From Pseudobdellovibrionaceae bacterium (lineage in GTDB: Bacteria > Pseudomonadota > Alphaproteobacteria > Micavibrionales > Micavibrionaceae), in the NCBI GenBank assembly GCA_050251555.1, contig JBFWMN010000001.1, forward strand, positions 26,806 through 90,805: a stretch of DNA of 64,000 nt, written 5' to 3'. Positions within the stretch are counted from its first letter, which is position 1; each line of letters starts with the position of its first letter. Below, piece after piece: positions 10,108 to 22,723 of the stretch. A program made the position numbers and the translations under genes. The notes beneath the pieces are model-generated. The model was not told where the DNA came from. It did not search any database and saw only the letters and a program-made list of their open reading frames with translations.

Positions 10108-10195
10108 TGGTGCGGCCAAGAAGACTCGAACTTCCACGGGCTCAATGCCCACAGCGACCTCAACGCTGCGCGTCTACCAATTCCGCCATGGCCGC
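10108..10195 (-). tRNA. tRNA-Leu, anticodon GAG
   Basis: The reverse complement folds by hand as GCGGCCA-TG-GCG..CGC-G-CAGCG-TTGAGGT-CGCTG-long variable arm (GGGC ATTGA GCCC)-GGAAG TTCGAGT CTTCT-TGGCCGC-ACCA. It has a 7-bp acceptor stem, encoded CCA, and a class II variable arm. Confidence 0.9.
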
Positions 10196-13214: not shown

Positions 13215-13901
13215 ATGAACGAACTCGACACACGTAAAATTCGCCTGATTATGCAGCTCCGAAGCCTCGGCATTCAGGATACTGCCGTGCTGTCGGCAAT
13301 CGAGACGACGCCGCGTGAATTGTTCGTGCCGCAAGCCATTCGCCATCAGGCTTATGAAGATAAAGCTCTGCCGATCGGTCTGGAACAAACCATCTCCCAG
13401 CCCTATATCGTGGCATTGATGACGCAAGCTTTGGAGCTCAATGATCGCCATAAAGTCCTCGAAGTTGGAACGGGGTCCGGCTATCAGGCGGCAATTTTGG
13501 CCAAGCTCTGCCGTCGTGTCTATACGGTGGAGCGTCACCGCCCGCTCTTGGAAGTGGCTGAGCAGCGCTTTGATCAATTGAAACTGAGAAACATTACGGC
13601 ACTGGCTGCTGACGGGATGAAAGGCTGGCCCGAGCAAGCCCCCTTTGACCGTATGATTTTGACCGCTGCAGCCTTTAACGAGCCACCCCAAGCTCTTCTG
13701 GACCAGATGGCGGACGGCGGCATTATGGTTGCACCCGTGACCCGCGCCGATAAAGTCCAGATGCTGCGCCGTTACCGTAAGGAAAGCGCCGATACGTTCG
13801 CCATCAAGGATTTGTGCGAGGTGCGTTTCGTGCCGCTATTGCCCGATGTTGTGGCGCGTACCGTCTATACGGACGGAGATTTGCGCGAGGTGAAGGCATG
13901 A
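13215..13901 (+). CDS. pcm: Protein-L-isoaspartate O-methyltransferase
   Basis: 228 aa. Motifs ISQPYIVALM and the SAM motif VLEVGTGSGYQAAILA. Confidence 0.9.
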   Translation: MNELDTRKIRLIMQLRSLGIQDTAVLSAIETTPRELFVPQAIRHQAYEDKALPIGLEQTISQPYIVALMTQALELNDRHKVLEVGTGSGYQAAILAKLCRRVYTVERHRPLLEVAEQRFDQLKLRNITALAADGMKGWPEQAPFDRMILTAAAFNEPPQALLDQMADGGIMVAPVTRADKVQMLRRYRKESADTFAIKDLCEVRFVPLLPDVVARTVYTDGDLREVKA

Positions 13902-14962
13902 GAGGTTTGAAAACGCTTCTGGTACTGTCACTGGCTGTTTTGCCGACAGCGTGTGCGAGTGAGAACAACGCCAATGTCCCTGTCTATTATTACGGGCAAG
14001 GGAAGGGGGCAGGCTCTACCGGTGCGCATGTCGCGATGATGGGCGATACGGTGGACACCATTGCGGCGCGCTATAATGTACCGCGCCTTGATTTGATCGA
14101 GCTCAATCATTTGGAACAGCCCTATACGCTGTTTGTCGGGCAGCGTTTACTGTTGCCCGCGCCGCGTACCTATACGGTCGGGCAGGATGACTCGGTGGCC
14201 TCCATCGCCAAAACATTCGGGACAAGCCCCGAAGAGTTGGCGCGTTTGAATAATCTGCAAGCGCCGTTTCGCCTGACATTGGGGCAAAAACTGGAAATTC
14301 CGGCACTTTCGGGCGCGGCAAACGATTCCGCCTCCATGGCTTATCTGACCCTTGAGCCACCCGTTCCCAAAGTTGAAGGTGCGGCGCTTGAGCCTTTGAA
14401 TACCTTCCCGCCAGCGATGGACACGCCGCCGCAAGGGCAACCCCTTCCTGCCGAGACACCGCCACCAACGCAGACAGCGTCCTTGCCGCAACCTGCCGTG
14501 CCTCAAGCCGTACCACCACCCCAAGCGCCACCCAAACCTGCGGGGCAGGCGATTGATGTCTCCAAAATTAAAGTCCCTGCAAGAGGGGGTGCCAAAATGG
14601 TGCGGCCCGTACAGGGGAATATTGCCTCCAGCTTCGGCCCGAAAGCCGATACGTTACAAAATGACGGCATCAATATTGTCGCGGTACGCGGGGCACCTGT
14701 CCGCGCTGCCGAAAACGGTGTTGTCATCTATGCGGGTGAGGATCTCGCCAGCTATGGCAAGCTGACCCTCGTGAAACATGAGGGCGGTCTGGTGACAGCC
14801 TATGCGCATCAGGACAAGTTTCTGGTGACAAAGGGCCAAGTGGTCAATCGCGGGCAGACCATCGGTACGGTGGGCTCAAGCGGGAATGTCCAGACCCCGC
14901 AACTTCATTTTGAAGTCCGTAAAGGCTCCAAGCCCGTTAATCCGACCGCTTATCTTGAGTAA
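13898..14962 (+). CDS. nlpD: LysM-LysM-dLytM (degenerate M23) lipoprotein, NlpD type
   Basis: Track ORF 13814..14962, with the start moved to ATG 13898, which overlaps the pcm stop (ATGA). It has a lipoprotein-like signal (...LAVLPTAC), two LysM repeats, a Pro-rich linker and a C-terminal M23 domain. In that domain HxxxD reads NDGIN and HxH reads QLH. This is the non-catalytic NlpD/EnvC-type pattern (E. coli NlpD, as I recall it: NKGID / RLH). Confidence 0.88.
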   Translation: MRGLKTLLVLSLAVLPTACASENNANVPVYYYGQGKGAGSTGAHVAMMGDTVDTIAARYNVPRLDLIELNHLEQPYTLFVGQRLLLPAPRTYTVGQDDSVASIAKTFGTSPEELARLNNLQAPFRLTLGQKLEIPALSGAANDSASMAYLTLEPPVPKVEGAALEPLNTFPPAMDTPPQGQPLPAETPPPTQTASLPQPAVPQAVPPPQAPPKPAGQAIDVSKIKVPARGGAKMVRPVQGNIASSFGPKADTLQNDGINIVAVRGAPVRAAENGVVIYAGEDLASYGKLTLVKHEGGLVTAYAHQDKFLVTKGQVVNRGQTIGTVGSSGNVQTPQLHFEVRKGSKPVNPTAYLE

Positions 14963-15137: not shown

Positions 15138-15905
15138 ATGCTTAACAGAGGCAATCGGTTAGCAAAGGCTTGGGGGTTTTTCAGGCTTTTTTTATTGTGT
15201 GTCTTGGCAGTATGTATCTTACCAACGCCGTCCAGTGCGATGGAATGTCTCCGCCGCCCCCCTTTAAGTGAGGCAATCAAAAACTCAGATGTCATCGTTA
15301 AAGTATTTGTAGATCATCAAAAATCCAAATCTCCTCTCGTTGTAGAACGTATCTACAAAGATAATTCAAAAAGTTTGAAAGAAGGCCAGAGAGTTTCTGC
15401 ATCAGAAGCCGGCGCACTTTTTTCAGGTTTTAACTATGAAGATGGAGAAGAATGGTTCATCTATGGGAACAAAACTGAGCGCGCATTTATCAAAAACGCC
15501 TGTGGACCAAGCTTTCTCACACCTGATTATTTGATCCATCATTTTGGGGAAACGTCTAAAACAGAATATTACCTCAAAAATGGCTATCTTGTTTTTACTG
15601 GAAAACTTTTAGATACAAGTGACGATCAGTTCCAGTTCCGAATAGAGAAGCTTCTTGGCGGTGGATACGAAAAAGCTGAAATTTCAATAATATTTAAAGA
15701 CCCAAAATGTTCTAAAAACTTTGAAAAAGACAAAGAATACTTTGTTATAGCCGGATCAAATAATATACCTACAGCTCCAAAATTTCTGGGTCAATGTACC
15801 AATTATTCACCTTATCCAACTGATTTAGAAAAAACTTTAAATGGCTTAAACCCTAGGAGTTCATTATGGCATTCACTGTCCCAACAAATTATGAAGTTCT
15901 TTTAA
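15138..15905 (+). CDS. Secreted hypothetical protein with two tandem TIMP/NTR-like modules (putative metalloprotease inhibitor; function is inferred)
   Basis: 255 aa with a signal-peptide-like N-terminus (...CILPTPSSA/MEC). It is a paralog of 16844..17680. C-LRRPPLSEAIKNSDVIVKV and KCSKNFEKDKEYFVIAG resemble the TIMP N-domain. It lies directly 5' of a serralysin-like ORF. Confidence 0.7.
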   Translation: MLNRGNRLAKAWGFFRLFLLCVLAVCILPTPSSAMECLRRPPLSEAIKNSDVIVKVFVDHQKSKSPLVVERIYKDNSKSLKEGQRVSASEAGALFSGFNYEDGEEWFIYGNKTERAFIKNACGPSFLTPDYLIHHFGETSKTEYYLKNGYLVFTGKLLDTSDDQFQFRIEKLLGGGYEKAEISIIFKDPKCSKNFEKDKEYFVIAGSNNIPTAPKFLGQCTNYSPYPTDLEKTLNGLNPRSSLWHSLSQQIMKFF

Positions 15906-16676
15906 CGTGGAACACGCCTGTAGACAATCCCAACTCTCTAGAAGATGAGTTTTTCAATTCCATTGGTGCCGTAGAGCCTTGGTCATGGACAGGATATTCC
16001 GGTACTAGTGCCACCATCAATTATAGCCTGCTAGCGGCAAACTCTTTTTTTGCAGGATCATCAATCCCATTTACCCCTACTTCCTCTACAGACTTACCTG
16101 CAACTGTGATTGCAATTCAACCTATCTTAAATTTGATAAAGAATGTCGCAAATGTAAGTTTTATAAATGATGATACAAATCCTGATTTTGTCATATCTAC
16201 TGTAAATACAACTTCCTACGCCGGTTTAGCAGTACCCTCAATAACAAACCAAGATGTATCTGTAGTTGATGTTTCCAAAATTAAAGTCCCTGCAAGGGGG
16301 GGGCGCAAAAATGGTGCGCCCCGTTCAGGGCAATATTGCCTCCGGCTTCGGGCCGAAAGCCGATACGTTACAAAATGACGGCATCAATATTGTCGCCGTG
16401 CGCGGGGCACCTGTCCGTGCTGCCGAAAACGGTGTTGTCATCTATGCGGGTGAGGATCTCGCCAGCTATGGCAAGTTGATCCTCGTGAAACATGAAGGCG
16501 GGCTGGTGACAGCCTACGCGCATCAGGATAAGTTTCTGGTGACAAAGGGTCAAGTGGTCAATCGCGGGCAGACCATCGGTACGGTGGGTTCAAGCGGGAA
16601 TGTCCAGACCCCGCAACTCCATTTTGAAGTCCGCAAAGGCTCCAAACCCGTTAATCCGACGACCTATCTTGAGTAA
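15866..16676 (+). pseudogene. Chimeric ORF: serralysin-like N-terminal fragment (about 133 codons) joined to a second copy of the nlpD dLytM domain, interrupted by a net +1 frameshift
   Basis: ORF 15866..16378 has AGGAG 6 nt upstream of its ATG. Its first 133 aa parallel the N-terminus of the 17715 protein (W-WTG, ILNLIKNVANVSF versus VLKLISNVANINF) but end before any HEXXH. From 16266 it enters the nlpD copy in frame (VDVSKIKVPARGG), then loses the frame at 16296-16311. The dLytM reading frame continues as track ORF 16266..16676. Confidence 0.75.
16296..16311 (+). other. G8 and A5 homopolymer tracts containing the net +1 nt relative to nlpD
   Basis: nlpD has GCAAGAGGGGGTGCCAAAATGG (24 nt through ATGGTG). 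The copy has GCAAGGGGGGGGCGCAAAAATGG (25 nt). Confidence 0.85.
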
Positions 16677-16688
16677 GAAGTGGCGTTG

Positions 16689-16724
16689 CCCTTTTCATGC
16701 AATGGCATGATAAAGTTTTATTTA
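16689..16724 (+). terminator. Copy of the nlpD terminator hairpin
   Basis: CTTTTCATGC-AATG-GCATGATAAAG followed by TTTTATTT. It is the same palindrome TCATGCAATGGCATGA seen in copy 1. Confidence 0.5.
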
Positions 16725-16843
16725 GTCACGCGTATTTCTGCCTCTTTCGCATAACTTTAGAAAATGTGACTTTGCAGTCATTGACTCTTCAGAATTTCAC
16801 CTTTAAGGCTAGAAATCCATACATACACGGGGGAACATTTCTT

Positions 16844-17680
16844 ATGCTCAAAAGAGCCAAAAGCATCTTCAAAAAATCGTCTCGCAAATCTTATGTATTG
16901 GCCTTGTTTATCGCGGTGCTATTAGTGGTGCTGTATAGCGGAATAAATATGTCTTCTGCTGACCGAGATCCGGATGCGCCGGGGTTTGACGGTCGCACTT
17001 CATTAGAATGGGCTCATGAACATTCAAGCTTAATCTTTTTAGGACGAATTCTGAGCGAGAAGCATCCATACGATGTTGAGGTTCTTGAAGTATTCAAGGA
17101 CTCAAAGAACAGGCTAGAAGGCAAGAAACATGTTCTGATTGAGCATGTTCTGTCGATGGGCGAATACTACCTTGGCGCACATAAAGATGAAGTACTCATC
17201 ATTTTTGCCGGATACGATGAAAAGAACAAAGCCATACGCGTTTCGGAGAGATCGCGCACGCAATATCCACCCCAATATTTTGTTAAACATATCCAAAATG
17301 CCAAGGGGCGTTGGGAAGGATGGAGCGACACTGAAAAATATACAGTCTTTGTCGGTACGGTCGATAAGATCATAAAATCCGAGGACAGGAAAGATACAGC
17401 AATCCTCTTCAAAGATGTTTCTCTTGTTTCAGGCTCGCTTGAAGGAGAGTCAACGGATCACTTGAACGTAAGCTTTCAATACGACGCGCGCTGTGCAGAT
17501 TTATACAAGGAAAAAAATCGATATGTTGTCTTTGTAAAGAAACAATACAAAACACTAGATACACGGGAAAACGGGAAGGAAAAACGCGTATTTCAAAAAT
17601 TCAACAGTACTTATTGCGCTTTATATCAACCATATGACTTTGACATCTTAGAAAAACTGCGTAATTGGAAAGTTAAATAA
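16844..17680 (+). CDS. Membrane-anchored or exported hypothetical protein, paralog of 15138..15905 (tandem TIMP/NTR-like pattern; putative metalloprotease inhibitor)
   Basis: Track ORF 16697..17680. The upstream 49 codons are the repeat/promoter region, so I start at ATG 16844 (MLKRAKSIFKK..., GGGGGA 9 nt upstream). It has an N-terminal hydrophobic anchor, YVLALFIAVLLVVLY. It lies 34 nt upstream of the RTX protease gene. Confidence 0.7.
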   Translation: MLKRAKSIFKKSSRKSYVLALFIAVLLVVLYSGINMSSADRDPDAPGFDGRTSLEWAHEHSSLIFLGRILSEKHPYDVEVLEVFKDSKNRLEGKKHVLIEHVLSMGEYYLGAHKDEVLIIFAGYDEKNKAIRVSERSRTQYPPQYFVKHIQNAKGRWEGWSDTEKYTVFVGTVDKIIKSEDRKDTAILFKDVSLVSGSLEGESTDHLNVSFQYDARCADLYKEKNRYVVFVKKQYKTLDTRENGKEKRVFQKFNSTYCALYQPYDFDILEKLRNWKVK

Positions 17681-17714: not shown

Positions 17715-20700
17715 ATGACTTGGACAATTAATCCTGATGATCTCGACGATAATGTTGAAAAACTTTTTGTATGGCCTGAGTATGGGTTGTTTTCGTGGAC
17801 AGGTCAGCTTGGTGCTACAGCAAATGTAACTTTTACGCTTAATCCCAGTTCCCTCCACCCCGGCTCATCAGGCCAACCCACATCTTCTGTTTCTTGGGGG
17901 GATGCAGGTCAAACAGCGGCGTTTGCAGATGACATATCAGATGTTTTGAAATTGATCTCGAATGTAGCAAATATCAACTTCACATACTCTACATCTGCTT
18001 CAGTCAACGATATAGCTTTTGCTCTTGCGGATAAAGATACGTTTATATACACAGACACTGAAGACAATGAATATCCCATAGCAGGTCACGCATATACCCC
18101 AACCCCTTATTCCAACCAAACGACGGGGTATGCAGATATATATTTTTCTGATTATTATGATGATTTTAGTGTAGGCTCTAGAGGCAGCTCAACCTTGCTT
18201 CATGAGGTTTTACACGCCTTAGGAATAAGCCACCCTAACGGTGTTCCTGATGATGACGATTTCAACAAAATAAGCACGGTCATGAGCGATGTGCCCTCCG
18301 GTATAGCTGATCCCAACTTGGTAACAGATGAATTTCGTTCCGATAACAGTTACGCGCCAGCTACCCTTATGCCCTATGATATTGCGGCGCTGCAATATTT
18401 GTATGGTGTCAACAACACATATAATGCAAATGATAATGTCTACATATTCCATCAAAACGGAACGATTTCTATTTCAAATCCTCAAAATTCTGAAGCAACA
18501 ATTGTCGGTAATCTGGTTGCAATTTGGGATGCTGGTGGTGACAATGATGAATATAAGCTGGATGCCACTATAATAGCGGACTCAAGAATAGATTTGAGAG
18601 CAGGCGCTGTTGCAGAAGAGGATCAGTATTATAAAGATCACACGAATATGAAGGTTTATGCTTCTCATATTGCATTCTCCGATGGAACCTCTCTTACGGT
18701 GGCTAATTCACTACCCGTGAGTGGCGTTGACCCACTCATTGAAAATGCAACGGGAGCACAAGGCAAAGACACTATCATTGGAAATGATAAGGCAAACATC
18801 CTTAAAGGTGAGGGTGGGGGCGATACCCTTGTTGGTGGTGCTGGCGTAGATACTTTATTCGGTGGAGCAGGTAACGATACGTTTATAGCTCATGTTGGGG
18901 TTTCAGGTCTTGACGGTGATTCCTATTATGGAGGTGACGAAAATTCTAGGGGGGAAGCTGATGGCATTGATACGGTTGATTATAGTGCAATAGACTCTGA
19001 TGCCTATGGCATAGCCAAAGTAAATATAGGTACAGGCGAGGACGTTGTCTGGTTTTACAAAAAAGATTTTTTATCGGATGGCAGCCTTGTATTTGGAGCA
19101 AAAGATTATCTCTACTCGATTGAAAATATTGTTTTTGGCGGAGATGTTATTTCTCTGGTAAATGGAACAGATGGAAATGACACACTGAATGATACAGATT
19201 ACTATATTTTAGAGATTCTATACGGTGGGCTGGGTGACGATGACATAAGCTTAGGCTACAATGATATCGCAGATGGTGGGGATGATAATGATACTTTCCA
19301 TACTTCCTTAGATTCATTAGCTGTATCTGGATATGGCGAAGCACAAATTCTTGGCGGGTCAGGGACCGACACTTTGGATTTGGTTATTGATAGCTCTTAC
19401 AGTACCTCAAATGCAGCTAAGTCAGAAAACGTATTTATTTCAAAAAGCCAAGGTGTGATCTCTGTCAGTGGTGCTTACACTTTAGTGCAAGCAAAAGACG
19501 TGGAAACCATCACTTTTACTGCAAGCGATACCAGATACAAGTCTCCGTTGTTACTGGCTAATCAGTTTGGCAGCGGCAATCTAAACTACGGAGATATCAC
19601 GAGCGGCACCATCAACGGTTTCACGGGGTTAAACCGTCTGGATTACTCATCTTCGTCCAGCGGAATGACGTATTCATCTACCCTGTCCGGATCTCACACT
19701 ATACTGACAAACAGCCTGTCTCAATCGGCTGTCAATGTAACAGAACTGTATGGCACCAACAAAGGTGACTACATCACTTTGCAAGACAGTACAAACACTC
19801 GCGTGTATCTGGGAACGGGTGATGACACGCTGATTTTAAATAATGCAAGTACATCTTATGGGTATGTCGTCGGGTACAGCGGTGGCGATGATCTTATCCA
19901 GTCCACCGGCTATTCTTACGGGGCAAGTCTTATTATTCAAGTCGATAAAAATATCACACTTTCGGACTTAGTTAGTATTACGCCAGAGTCAGGCGTTAAT
20001 TATAACGACCCGTTTGAAGTCGTTTTTGATTTCGGCAGCAAAGGTTCTCTGACCATCTCTGCATTTACAAAGAACTCGACCTTATCCATTAACGATCCAG
20101 CTAATGACAGAGAAGCCTACCTTAAATTCAATTACGGATACAACAACACTACTGAACTATACGACCCATTTCTAACCACCTCATATACAGCCTATTCCAC
20201 TTCAAAAGAGTTTACATTCAGAGGGACGTGGGATGATGACGTCATTCACGGCACATCTGCAAGAGACTCAATTTGGGCTCTTGGTGGTAACGATACCGTT
20301 TATGGTAGCGACAATGACGATTACATCTATGGCGGCGATGGCAATGATATCCTAGTCGGCGAAGAAGGAACCGACCATATTTATGGTGGTGCGGGAGGTG
20401 ACACAATCTACGCTGAAGATCAGAGCACAACACCAACGACAATTTCTTTTAACTGGCTATACGCAGGTGATGGTGATGACACTGTTTACGGCAGTCAGGG
20501 AGGCGATTATGTGGAAGGTGGTAATGGCGATGATGTCATATATGTCTTCGGCGGCTCTAATACAGTCTACGCTGGTAACGGCAATGATATTCTTCAAGGC
20601 GCTTTTAATGAAGTTTATGGCGGCGACGGTGATGATACCATCACAGCAGAGGGCAGCTCTTATTATGTTAACGGTGATTCTGGCAACGACATCATTCACA

Positions 20701-22652
20701 TTGTAGGCACTGCAGCATATGTCTATGGCGGCGACGGTGATGATGTCATATATGGGGCGGTCGATAATGAGGACTCCCGCATATATGGGGATGATGGGAA
20801 TGATATCATCTTTGGTCGCGGAGGAAATGACACCCTGTATGGTGGTAATGGGGATGATTTCTTGTATTCAAACACGGATAGCTCATTTGCATCTGACGCT
20901 GGGGATTTTGTTCTTCTATACGGAGAAGATGGCAATGACTTTATTCAAGGTGCAGATGGCGCTGATTATGCCTCCGGTGGCGCAGGTAGTGATATTCTCA
21001 AAGGCGGCAATGGCGGAGACACCCTATCAGGTGACGATGGAGACGATCAGCTATTTGGGGAAGATGGAAATGATAACATAAGCGGCGACGAGGGAGATGA
21101 TCTCTTATACGGCGGAGCAGGTAATGACACACTTGAAGGCGGTTTGGGTTACGACATTCTGATTGGTGGGGCTGGGAATGACACCTTATATGGCGGAAAT
21201 AGTGCAGCCATATGGAATAGTAACTTATTCGTTTTTGAGAGTGGCTTTGGTCATGATACTGTCGATGACTTTGTTACCTCGCTTGATAAGATTGATCTGA
21301 CCGATTTTTCATCAATTTCAGATGTATCGCAATTGGATATTTATGTCTTCACCAACTCTTATGGATCGACAACGACGATTACCATAAGCGCGACGGAAAT
21401 TATCACTTTGTCGCATGAGCTGCGCTACGATAACATCTACACTCTAACAAACGATAATTTCATTTTTGCGCATCCGAGTACTGACTACGGTAACTCCAGC
21501 GATGACCTATTGATGGGCACATCGGGTGCCGATACACTCGATGGTCGTGCTGGGAATGATACTTTGGAGGGCCTTGGCGGGAATGACATTCTCACGGGTG
21601 GGGTAGGTTCTGACGTCTTTATCTACTCGGGTAGCTTTGGTAATGACACCATAACGGACTTCGAACTCAATATTGATAAGATTGATCTTTCTCAGATACA
21701 AGCCGTTGCCGGCTATAGCAACCTGATACTCTCTCAAGTTGGGTCTGATACTTTAATTAGCTTCTCAGGAACTTCAGACTCGATCCTTTTGGAGGGTATT
21801 AATAGATACAGTTTAAACAGTTCTCAGTTTAAATTCGGTACTTACGGCACTTCTGGCAATGATTATATCGAAGGCACGTCTGGTGATGACTCAATCTTTG
21901 GCCTTGGGGGCAGCGATGAAATCTATGGCCTTGGTGGAAATGACCGCGTTGAAGGTGGTGACCAGAATGACTGGGTTTACGGAGGCACTGGCAATGACAT
22001 TGTGAAAGGCAATGCCGGAAATGATGTTGTTGCAGGTGATGATGGAAATGACACCCTCTATGGGGGCATCGGACAAGATTACCTCTGGGGTAATAAAGGT
22101 AATGACACGCTCTATGGTGAAGCGGATATTGATGCTCTCAGAGGCATGGAAGGTGATGACATTCTATACGGTGGAGAGGGGAACGACAATTTGCGCGGCG
22201 ATGATGTTGACTCTCTTTCCAACTTTGCGGGTGCCGGTAACGACATCCTGTATGGCGGCGCGGGCAATGATAACCTCGAAGGCGGGGCAGGCGACGATAT
22301 CCTTGTCGGCGGCACTGGTGCAGATATTATGAACGGAAGCGCAGGTTCGGATACGTTCTACTATGAAGCTGCGGATATTGATGGTTCACGGGATGCAATA
22401 TATGGTTTTCAGGCTGGTATAGGTGGGGACATCATCGATATATCCGATGTTCTGCAATATGACAGCGCAACGGATAATCTGTCAGACTTCGTATTTCTTG
22501 TTCAAGGTGGCAGCTACACACGGATCAATATTGACATTGATGGTACGGGTACAAATTACAGTTCTCAGTCACTGGCACAACTTCAGGGCGTGACGGGCCT
22601 TAATCTTACTGACATGGTCAATAGCGGTAATCTGGTTGTTGAGGCGGCCTAA
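17715..22652 (+). CDS. Giant serralysin-family (M10B) zinc metalloprotease with multiple RTX Ca-binding repeat blocks and a type I secretion C-terminal domain
   Basis: 1645 aa. Metzincin motif HEVLHALGISHP with the Met-turn candidate STVMSD. Serralysin-type motifs LMPYDIAALQYLYGVN and AIWDAGGDNDEY. There are dozens of GGxGxDxUx nonapeptides in four blocks. The C-terminal GDIIDISDVL...FVFLV...TRINIDIDGTG...LAQLQGV...LVVEAA resembles the VC_A0849-type T1SS target domain. Confidence 0.9.
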   Translation: MTWTINPDDLDDNVEKLFVWPEYGLFSWTGQLGATANVTFTLNPSSLHPGSSGQPTSSVSWGDAGQTAAFADDISDVLKLISNVANINFTYSTSASVNDIAFALADKDTFIYTDTEDNEYPIAGHAYTPTPYSNQTTGYADIYFSDYYDDFSVGSRGSSTLLHEVLHALGISHPNGVPDDDDFNKISTVMSDVPSGIADPNLVTDEFRSDNSYAPATLMPYDIAALQYLYGVNNTYNANDNVYIFHQNGTISISNPQNSEATIVGNLVAIWDAGGDNDEYKLDATIIADSRIDLRAGAVAEEDQYYKDHTNMKVYASHIAFSDGTSLTVANSLPVSGVDPLIENATGAQGKDTIIGNDKANILKGEGGGDTLVGGAGVDTLFGGAGNDTFIAHVGVSGLDGDSYYGGDENSRGEADGIDTVDYSAIDSDAYGIAKVNIGTGEDVVWFYKKDFLSDGSLVFGAKDYLYSIENIVFGGDVISLVNGTDGNDTLNDTDYYILEILYGGLGDDDISLGYNDIADGGDDNDTFHTSLDSLAVSGYGEAQILGGSGTDTLDLVIDSSYSTSNAAKSENVFISKSQGVISVSGAYTLVQAKDVETITFTASDTRYKSPLLLANQFGSGNLNYGDITSGTINGFTGLNRLDYSSSSSGMTYSSTLSGSHTILTNSLSQSAVNVTELYGTNKGDYITLQDSTNTRVYLGTGDDTLILNNASTSYGYVVGYSGGDDLIQSTGYSYGASLIIQVDKNITLSDLVSITPESGVNYNDPFEVVFDFGSKGSLTISAFTKNSTLSINDPANDREAYLKFNYGYNNTTELYDPFLTTSYTAYSTSKEFTFRGTWDDDVIHGTSARDSIWALGGNDTVYGSDNDDYIYGGDGNDILVGEEGTDHIYGGAGGDTIYAEDQSTTPTTISFNWLYAGDGDDTVYGSQGGDYVEGGNGDDVIYVFGGSNTVYAGNGNDILQGAFNEVYGGDGDDTITAEGSSYYVNGDSGNDIIHIVGTAAYVYGGDGDDVIYGAVDNEDSRIYGDDGNDIIFGRGGNDTLYGGNGDDFLYSNTDSSFASDAGDFVLLYGEDGNDFIQGADGADYASGGAGSDILKGGNGGDTLSGDDGDDQLFGEDGNDNISGDEGDDLLYGGAGNDTLEGGLGYDILIGGAGNDTLYGGNSAAIWNSNLFVFESGFGHDTVDDFVTSLDKIDLTDFSSISDVSQLDIYVFTNSYGSTTTITISATEIITLSHELRYDNIYTLTNDNFIFAHPSTDYGNSSDDLLMGTSGADTLDGRAGNDTLEGLGGNDILTGGVGSDVFIYSGSFGNDTITDFELNIDKIDLSQIQAVAGYSNLILSQVGSDTLISFSGTSDSILLEGINRYSLNSSQFKFGTYGTSGNDYIEGTSGDDSIFGLGGSDEIYGLGGNDRVEGGDQNDWVYGGTGNDIVKGNAGNDVVAGDDGNDTLYGGIGQDYLWGNKGNDTLYGEADIDALRGMEGDDILYGGEGNDNLRGDDVDSLSNFAGAGNDILYGGAGNDNLEGGAGDDILVGGTGADIMNGSAGSDTFYYEAADIDGSRDAIYGFQAGIGGDIIDISDVLQYDSATDNLSDFVFLVQGGSYTRINIDIDGTGTNYSSQSLAQLQGVTGLNLTDMVNSGNLVVEAA
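18201..18236 (+). other. Zinc-binding active-site motif HEVLHALGISHP (HEXXHXXGXXH)
   Basis: Read from the DNA: cat gag gtt tta cac gcc tta gga ata agc cac cct, in frame with 17715 (residue 163). Confidence 0.9.
20251..21200 (+). repeat. Main RTX nonapeptide repeat block (coding)
   Basis: Runs from GGNDTVYGSDNDDYIYGGDGNDILVGEEGTDHIYGGAGGDTIY to GGAGNDTLYGG. Smaller blocks lie at about 18748-18893 and about 21500-21640. Confidence 0.85.
21845..22362 (+). repeat. C-terminal RTX nonapeptide repeat block (coding)
   Basis: Runs from GTSGNDYIEGTSGDDSIFGLGGSDEIYGLGGNDRVEGG to GGTGADIMNGSAGSDTFYY. Confidence 0.85.
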
Positions 22653-22699
22653 AGACATAACTCCCTTCTTTGCAATGTTATCCCCCGTGATTGGCTGGC

Positions 22700-22723
22700 G
22701 GGGCAGGCTGCCCCCTTGTATTT
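22700..22723 (+). terminator. Weak candidate terminator after the RTX gene
   Basis: GGGGCA-GGC-TGCCCC followed by CTTGTATTT. The stem is short and the loop only 3 nt. Confidence 0.3.

Follow-up and report, generated by a model that had tools for sequence, protein, structure and literature searches.

This report concerns two small open reading frames (ORFs), ORF A and ORF B, that lie between positions 15138 and 17680 of a 64,000-nucleotide stretch of DNA, hereafter the window, taken from the Pseudobdellovibrionaceae bacterium assembly GCA_050251555.1 (contig JBFWMN010000001.1, positions 26,806 to 90,805), together with the serralysin-like metalloprotease genes that accompany them. The window carries, in order, lipB, a formylglutamate-amidohydrolase-like gene, serS, pcm and nlpD, followed by yajC and secD, and this run from lipB to secD is a housekeeping set typical of Alphaproteobacteria. 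The interval between nlpD and yajC has a GC content of 43–47% compared with about 51% in the flanks, and holds, all on the forward strand, ORF A, a short serralysin-like frame (protease A), a partial nlpD, ORF B and the gene for a 1645-aa protein (protease B). Our best guess, a tentative one, is that ORF A and ORF B encode putative Sec-exported periplasmic proteins that bind or inhibit their cognate proteases for self-protection.

Both ORFs are present on the forward strand with the boundaries and lengths given by an earlier reading made from the sequence alone (the sequence-only reading), and its description of the products as exported is borne out in so far as both N-termini, judged by eye with cleavage placed by the −3/−1 rule, fit a Sec-type signal peptide. 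Cleavage is predicted at ...LPTPSSA/MEC in ORF A, at ...GINMSSA/DRDP in ORF B and at ...FGASA/FE in P0003, a homologue from another genome, leaving mature proteins of 221 aa for ORF A and 239 aa for ORF B. An alternative start of ORF B at 16697, which would give a 327-aa ORF, was set aside; the extension falls within a repeated leader, and the ATG at 16844 aligns with that of ORF A. ORF B is under purifying selection, with omega values of 0.14–0.22 in comparison with its homologues (0.14–0.17 for the P0003 and P0004 genes), and on this substitution pattern it is a real gene.

MAFFT and hhalign both align ORF A and ORF B colinearly, at 22–23% identity over about 190–220 columns, and recover in the same order every matching segment that the sequence-only reading had listed. 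Two cysteines and the motif C..Y.PY..D.EK..N are invariant in all four sequences of the family (ORF A, ORF B, P0003 and P0004). The low-identity, whole-length alignment claimed earlier is therefore reproducible, but it attains only marginal significance (p about 0.003–0.01). hhalign of the ORF B family against ORF A gives 190 colinear columns at 22% identity with P = 0.009; a global alignment of the two proteins has z = 4.8, its score being reached by 5 of 2000 shuffles, and 55 of 5000 shuffles equal or exceed the score of ORF A with the hidden Markov model of the ORF B family. BLASTP of one protein against the other is not significant, returning a short off-register match (E = 0.19) and a long colinear alignment (E = 9.6). 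Homology is nonetheless the parsimonious explanation because the sequence signal coincides with the same position behind a shared leader, similar lengths, signal-peptide-like N-termini and homologous N-termini of the proteases encoded downstream, and the two proteins are probably distant, anciently diverged homologues belonging to one small exported family. The further proposal that each protein is internally duplicated fails, as profiles of the N-terminal and C-terminal modules do not match one another (hhalign E = 0.65, 8 columns).

The two ORFs are each preceded by a copy of a direct repeat of about 550 bp, with 94% identity over the last 411 nt of nlpD and 89% over the intergenic leader. 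The copies can be aligned, in register, as far as the ATGs that open ORF A and ORF B (ATGCTTAACAGAGGCAAT and ATGCTCAAAAGAGCCAAA, respectively), beyond which similarity is lost. Divergence between the nlpD copies is almost wholly synonymous (dS, synonymous divergence, 0.247; dN, non-synonymous divergence, 0.011; omega = 0.045), which argues that they diverged as functional genes in two different genomes; judged by this pattern, the second copy derives from another genome. The frame of protease A stops, 5' of the zinc motif, exactly at the start of the second nlpD copy, and its ORF continues to position 16378 through frameshifted nlpD-derived sequence. The simplest reading of the tandem layout is that DNA of a related organism, extending from the middle of nlpD across ORF B and protease B, was inserted by recombination at a resident locus of the arrangement nlpD–ORF A–protease A; the incoming DNA would have cut protease A of that locus short without damaging ORF A. 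The duplicated 3' end of nlpD (16266–16676) itself constitutes a 136-aa ORF with a complete M23 domain, lacking a signal peptide and LysM, and a 1-nt difference in a run of G near 16296 places it out of frame with the protease remnant upstream. A DNA pattern search with the conserved leader found no match in genome and metagenome collections.

On sequence criteria the 1645-aa protein is serralysin-like (M10B). It combines an HEXXHXXGXXHP zinc motif (HEVLHALGISHP, at about nt 18201–18236) with a serralysin-type catalytic domain and C-terminal RTX repeats, of which there are 23 stretches in several blocks (Pfam HemolysinCabind, E = 2e-96; the match to Peptidase_M10 is weak). The NCBIfam Zn_serralysin match (E = 3.8e-21) falls below the curated cut-off, and alignment to the serralysin structure 1af0 in the PDB (E = 1.8e-10) superimposes HExxHxxGxxHP, DIAA(L/I)Q.LYG and WDAGG. 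The protein has no N-terminal signal peptide, and its RTX repeats are typical of type I secretion. It is atypical in its unusual length and in its candidate Met-turn, which reads STVMSD where serralysins have S-x-M-S-Y, an Asp replacing the zinc-ligand Tyr, and the nearest relatives of its catalytic domain in 5.8 billion protein clusters are only 31–38% identical. Directly upstream of two of these relatives, P0007 and P0012, lies a glycosyltransferase gene (Glyco_trans_4_3/Glycos_transf_1; L003 2524–3849, divergent, and L004 2617–3858, co-oriented), and an AprE-type membrane-fusion gene of a type I secretion system (T1SS) is found nearby in L003.

Protease A is preceded by an AGGAG ribosome-binding site and matches the N-terminus of protease B with 29% identity over 96 aa (BLASTP, E = 1e-5). 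The sequence-only reading had placed both ORFs immediately 5' of, and co-oriented with, an M10B reading frame. This is accurate for ORF B, whose stop codon is separated by a 34-nt gap from the start of the complete protease gene, with no terminator-like hairpin found between the two genes; for ORF A, the neighbouring frame, which shares 40 nt with its 3' end, amounts to no more than a 133-aa remnant that lacks HEXXH. The coordinates of all features are collected in Table 1.

Table 1. Features of the nlpD–yajC interval, in coordinates of the window
Feature	Position	Strand	Evidence
Intact nlpD, LysM + M23 lipoprotein	~13898–14962	+	Pfam LysM and M23 matches
Direct repeat copy 1: nlpD 3' end and intergenic leader up to the ORF A start codon	14553–15105	+	Repeat families D7, D1, D4; pairwise alignment
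ORF A, 255 aa; predicted signal peptide residues 1–34 (nt 15138–15239); GC 37.5%; database orphan	15138–15905	+	
Protease A remnant, ~133 N-terminal residues, without HEXXH	15866–16265	+	BLASTP against the large protease; junction from alignment
Direct repeat copy 2: partial nlpD (3' 411 nt) and intergenic leader up to the ORF B start codon	16266–16812	+	Repeat search, alignment, Pfam M23 (E = 4e-31)
ORF B, 278 aa; predicted signal peptide residues 1–39 (nt 16844–16960); very small family; purifying selection	16844–17680	+	
Serralysin-like (M10B) RTX protease, 1645 aa (protease B)	17715–22652	+	Pfam, NCBIfam and PDB sequence matches
Terminator-like hairpin 3' of the protease gene	22697–22714	+	

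The sequence-only reading had likened the start of ORF A to the mature N-terminus of the vertebrate metzincin inhibitors known as TIMPs, calling the resemblance striking, and had proposed that both proteins carry a TIMP/NTR-like pattern. Mature TIMPs begin with Cys1 of a CxC motif, and the free alpha-amino group of this residue binds the catalytic zinc. In ORF A, cleavage by the −3/−1 rule leaves M-E-C, so that the cysteine stands at about +3 of the likely cleavage site rather than at +1, and a CxC is lacking; the N-terminal halves of ORF B, P0003 and P0004 are free of cysteine and the mature N-termini of these proteins differ. Where TIMP and NTR domains have six cysteines, the ORF B family conserves two and ORF A has three in the mature protein and five in the precursor. 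Given the absent Cys1, the variable N-termini and the two conserved cysteines in place of six, a TIMP-type N-terminal wedge is not supported.

Homology to TIMPs was rejected at the level of sequence. Neither protein matches the Pfam profiles for TIMP (PF00965) or NTR (PF01759) at E <= 1, and PDB sequence searches with a cut-off of E <= 10 retrieve no chain of either kind. BLASTP against an approximate TIMP-2 sequence gives nothing (E = 53), and hhalign against an alignment of TIMP1–4, likewise of approximate sequences, returns only local matches of 19 columns (P = 0.02) and 25 columns (P = 0.12) with probabilities of 0.5–2.4%. These two short matches fall where the resemblance had been seen, and by eye the patterns C...(6-8)...Y-h-h-h-G and C..Y.PY are placed like what we take to be the TIMP motifs VCG...EYLIAG and LCDFIVPW. 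Scans of ORF A, ORF B and P0003 against Pfam, NCBIfam, PHROGs and PADLOC gave nothing usable, and queries of the PDB sequences, both by single sequence and by profiles of the entire protein or its C-terminal module, yielded noise or nothing. On these comparisons ORF A and ORF B are not TIMPs, nor are they demonstrable members of the NTR family.

An OB/NTR-type fold, the other structural element of the earlier proposal, fared somewhat better. The AlphaFold2 models of ORF A and ORF B, which share one four-sequence alignment and are thus not independent, are both beta-rich with the same order of elements, and the better-predicted C-terminal module is modelled as b1-b2-b3-helix-b4-b5, as expected of an OB fold. 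The best Foldseek matches of ORF A are to the C345C (NTR) domains of complement C3/C5 (6xzu_B, E = 8.6e-4, TM-score 0.38; 6s0b_C, E = 3.3e-3), with the NTR domain of PCOLCE1 (1uap) and the netrin-like AceES-2 (3nsw) lower down. ORF B retrieves generic OB folds along with C345C (6xzu_B, E = 0.09; 6s0b_C) and agrin NtA (1pxu), none of them at E <= 1e-3. OB folds and NTR-type modules are therefore ranked highest despite low pLDDT values, and the models lend weak support to an OB/NTR-like fold; against it stand the pLDDT of 52–55, TM-scores below 0.5 and the absence of any TIMP chain from the best 50 matches of either model. Chains of the serralysin inhibitor family I38 and of potempins are also absent from the best 50 for both models. 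We put the chance that at least one module is an OB/NTR-like barrel at about even.

Relatives of the two proteins are exceedingly rare. A word-indexed search of 5.8 billion protein clusters, which can miss relatives below roughly 35% identity, returned for ORF A only itself and for ORF B two further clusters, P0003 (68% identity) and P0004 (83%). An exhaustive HMMER search of 1.84 billion representatives, made with the profile of the ORF B family and not with ORF A, retrieved the family itself and a single other protein, the fungal-type ankyrin-repeat protein P0005 (E = 3.8e-5). This candidate was discarded as a repeat-summed artefact, in which seven GRTALQAAAEGGHL.. stretches are aligned to one GRTSLEWAHEHSS.. 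segment; residues 50–77 of ORF B (window 16991–17074, GRTSLEWAHEHSSLIFLGRILSEKHPYD) resemble a single ankyrin-repeat consensus and are the source of the spurious match. A tblastn search of plasmids gave no match, and a degenerate pattern derived from the alignment of ORF A with ORF B, when scanned against metagenomes, retrieved no relative of ORF A.

The homologues of ORF B that do exist bear the marks of mobility. Cluster P0004 comprises 31 members, including Erythrobacteraceae isolates (Porphyrobacter sp. MBR-155, and Croceibacterium atlanticum with split ORFs), and all of the members listed are 209 aa or shorter. In every locus with recovered upstream sequence, the 5' end of the 209-aa copies is cut directly after an IS5-type transposase gene. 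The mobile unit consists of this transposase (DUF4096 + DDE_Tnp_1_2) and the 5'-truncated homologue (L002 1–1253; L011 5181–6690; L014–L018), recurs with more than 99.5% identity in five or more different genomic contexts, and ceases to be homologous some 60 nt past the stop codon, at TGGTAGCGGAGGAGGGA, a sequence resembling the 3' end of a tRNA. The intact P0003 gene sits between a response-regulator gene and a convergent AcrB-type gene. Downstream of it (L001 1395–1450) the same boundary continues as a longer stretch resembling the 3' half of a tRNA, TGGTAGCGGAGGAGGGACTTGAACCCCCGCCACGCGGATTATGA, which looks like the att-site remnant of an integrative element, and a phage-type integrase gene lies just past the boundary in L014. 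ARAGORN called no tRNA gene near the L001 and L002 homologues, where only the tRNA-3'-like fragment is present; the sole tRNA gene in the window, tRNA-Leu(GAG) at 10108–10195 on the reverse strand, is unrelated to these fragments.

The surroundings of the segment agree with an alphaproteobacterial host, as suggested by the gene order serS-pcm-nlpD...yajC-secD and by CobS/CobT, a malic enzyme-PTA fusion and DUF4175. The closest relatives of nlpD among GTDB representatives are found in metagenome-assembled genomes (MAGs) of Rhodospirillales and Thalassospiraceae at 38–41% identity. In a Thalassospiraceae MAG whose nlpD is 41% identical, the order is surE-pcm-nlpD ... yajC-secDF with no protease segment, which indicates that the segment is lineage-specific. 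Taken with the NCBI family label, under which Micavibrio is also placed, these features make the source probably a deep-branching, Micavibrio-like alphaproteobacterium. A scan of ten large ORFs in the rest of the window revealed no T1SS genes.

How might these observations be brought together? In the reading that we tentatively prefer, each ORF would be the first gene of a two-gene cassette, the second encoding a type-I-secreted, serralysin-like RTX metalloprotease. The ORF product would bind the N-terminal catalytic domain of its cognate protease in the periplasm and protect the producing cell, in the manner of AprI/Inh, BamI and the potempins compared below. Its fold would be made up of beta modules, at least the C-terminal one being an OB-type barrel resembling NTR and held by one conserved disulfide, and inhibition, if any, would proceed via loops or surfaces and not by TIMP-like insertion of Cys1. 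The principal argument is the long-term conservation of the gene pair: the flanks of the two cassettes are 89–94% identical, yet the ORFs share only 22–23% and the protease N-termini 29%, so that both members have diverged to a similar extreme and appear to have been adjacent for a long time. Export, tight gene spacing and published precedents also favour the inhibitor reading.

Several points weigh against it. A type-I-secreted protease normally bypasses the periplasm, a compartment problem that the proposal has in common with AprI. Neither protein matches any inhibitor family in Pfam, NCBIfam or the PDB sequences, the homology of ORF A to ORF B is, by sequence alone, suggestive at best, and the structural models are of low confidence (pLDDT 51.8 and 54.8, pTM 0.39 and 0.43 for the two models), with Foldseek TM-scores of only 0.3–0.4 (best 0.38–0.41). 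No small exported gene is found upstream of the closest protease relatives (P0007, P0012 and P0009). The sequence-only reading had made conserved linkage to metzincin genes in other genomes a touchstone of its hypothesis, and none of the ten loci with ORF B homologues has a metzincin in the recovered sequence, but all copies except one are IS-truncated at the 5' end and lack a signal peptide. With neither the homologue loci nor the protease relatives showing the pairing, linkage to a metzincin is restricted to the window, in which two cassettes of ancient divergence display it.

The same survey gives substance to the strongest rival, a doubtful but serious possibility, according to which the ORFs are exported cargo of a horizontally acquired low-GC segment, for example periplasmic binding or structural proteins, whose function is unrelated to the protease with which they travel. 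The ten metzincin-free loci, the mobility of the IS5-linked unit with its tRNA-3'-like end, the depressed GC content of the region, the want of an inhibitor-family signature and the protease relatives without such a neighbour are all as this explanation would have them. It accounts less readily for the pairing of ORF and protease in two cassettes that have diverged to 22–29% identity, which argues for long-term linkage, and for gene spacing that is tight or overlapping, and the unlinked copies on which it draws are, with one exception, 5'-truncated relics without a signal peptide.

Less probable, and in our view unlikely, is a cassette of the polymorphic toxin/immunity type, in which the RTX protein would carry an antibacterial weapon in its variable N-terminal metzincin domain and the exported ORF would supply the matching periplasmic immunity protein. 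ORF A would then be an orphan immunity gene kept after displacement of its toxin, and the mobile standalone homologues acquired immunity genes. The idiomorph-like break, at which flanks of 89–94% identity give way abruptly at the ORF start codon to cassette contents of 22–29% identity, fits such a system, as do the truncated, displaced protease adjoining an intact ORF A and the occurrence of standalone homologues in Erythrobacteraceae, carried by mobile elements; in addition, the predator Micavibrio falls under the NCBI label Pseudobdellovibrionaceae, and the gene order is that of an alphaproteobacterium. An action of the protease on bacterial cells is, however, a supposition, and a single locus is known; most standalone copies are truncated and devoid of a signal peptide, and the window lacks T1SS genes (within the scan of ten large ORFs) and other toxin-system genes. 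The mechanism moreover overlaps with that of the periplasmic inhibitor and differs from it only in purpose. A long shot, the least probable of all that we considered, would combine these elements: a disulfide-poor NTR/TIMP-like OB-fold family would provide the specific partner, in the periplasm, that inhibits or gives immunity to a polymorphic N-terminal metzincin 'warhead', the latter being borne by an RTX protein that a Micavibrio-like predator secretes by the type I route. Cassettes would be exchanged by recombination downstream of nlpD, and orphan inhibitor genes would either stay behind once the toxin is displaced, as in ORF A, or reach possible prey (Erythrobacteraceae) via mobile elements.

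Artefact or decay, whereby the tandem would be a metagenome mis-assembly of two strains or ORF A a non-functional relic and there would be no true paralogue pair, is improbable: the source is a MAG, the nlpD copies differ like orthologues from separate genomes (omega 0.045), and ORF A has a truncated partner protease and, in the word-indexed search, no match other than itself, but the junction at 16266 joins unrelated sequences from the middle of a protease and the middle of nlpD, a join that shared k-mers would not yield and that makes mis-assembly unlikely, and ORF A retains an intact frame of 255 codons with a signal peptide and the conserved motifs of the family.

If the periplasmic inhibitor reading, which we prefer, is to be placed among known systems, the closest parallel in gene arrangement is family I38 of MEROPS (AprI/Inh/SmaPI), whose members are periplasmic inhibitors of serralysins that fold as eight-stranded barrels and whose presumed role is self-protection. 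Like them, ORF A and ORF B are small Sec-exported proteins encoded beside, and co-oriented with, a type-I-secreted protease of the serralysin type, although for ORF A this neighbour is the remnant only. They differ in having no match to Pfam PF02974 or in NCBIfam, in their mature lengths of 221 and 239 aa arranged as two modules, compared with a single barrel domain of about 105–125 aa, and in a predicted topology that is OB-like; the N-terminus of the ORF products is also unconserved.

The earlier assertion that a protease/inhibitor pairing of this sort would be undescribed in bacteria is overstated, since precedents exist in a Listeria pair (PMC8235301), the potempins (PMC9890683) and BamI-Mep72 (PMC4334185). 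Potempins of Tannerella forsythia are encoded directly upstream of the peptidase that they inhibit, as are ORF A and ORF B with respect to a peptidase gene; PotA, PotC and PotD are five-stranded OB-fold barrels, and PotA blocks an MMP (matrix metalloproteinase)-like metzincin via loops (PMC9890683). Potempins are outer-membrane lipoproteins of 98–132 residues (PMC9890683), whereas ORF A and ORF B have no lipobox by inspection, are twice as long and show no sequence match to them. The BamI gene of Pseudomonas aeruginosa, like ORF B, lies upstream of a metzincin gene, with which it is co-transcribed, and the encoded protein binds the protease and alleviates the toxicity of the latter; BamI is described as partly natively unfolded and Mep72 is type II-secreted (PMC4334185), and no sequence relationship to our proteins was detected. 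In Listeria, the metzincin gene mtz similarly adjoins a gene for an exported lipoprotein, Tim, which has a predicted, low-confidence TIMP-like fold and is a substrate of Mtz, not a demonstrated inhibitor; this pair is Gram-positive and phage-derived (PMC8235301). Tim is encoded downstream of its protease and ORF A and ORF B upstream, and again no sequence relationship was detected.

With the N-domain of TIMPs and with NTR modules, finally, the two proteins may have in common a barrel of OB topology, predicted at low confidence, for which Foldseek lists C345C, PCOLCE NTR and agrin NtA among the best matches; they differ in their 2–3 mature cysteines instead of 6, the lack of Cys1/CxC and the lack of any profile match. 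Since the family is tiny, the structural evidence weak and the metzincin linkage restricted to a single locus, the practical value of the inhibitor reading is that of a testable hypothesis rather than a result. Were a bacterial NTR/TIMP-like barrel indeed paired with a metzincin, this would be relevant to the question whether the TIMP-metzincin pairing predates animals or arose by convergence, and the extreme divergence of both partners behind near-identical flanks would offer a useful natural system for studying the co-evolution of protease and inhibitor. As inhibitors, ORF A and ORF B would add an unrelated sequence family to the few metzincin inhibitors known from bacteria (I38, potempins and BamI), and they would do so within a known kind of system, that of a metzincin and its co-transcribed, exported inhibitor.

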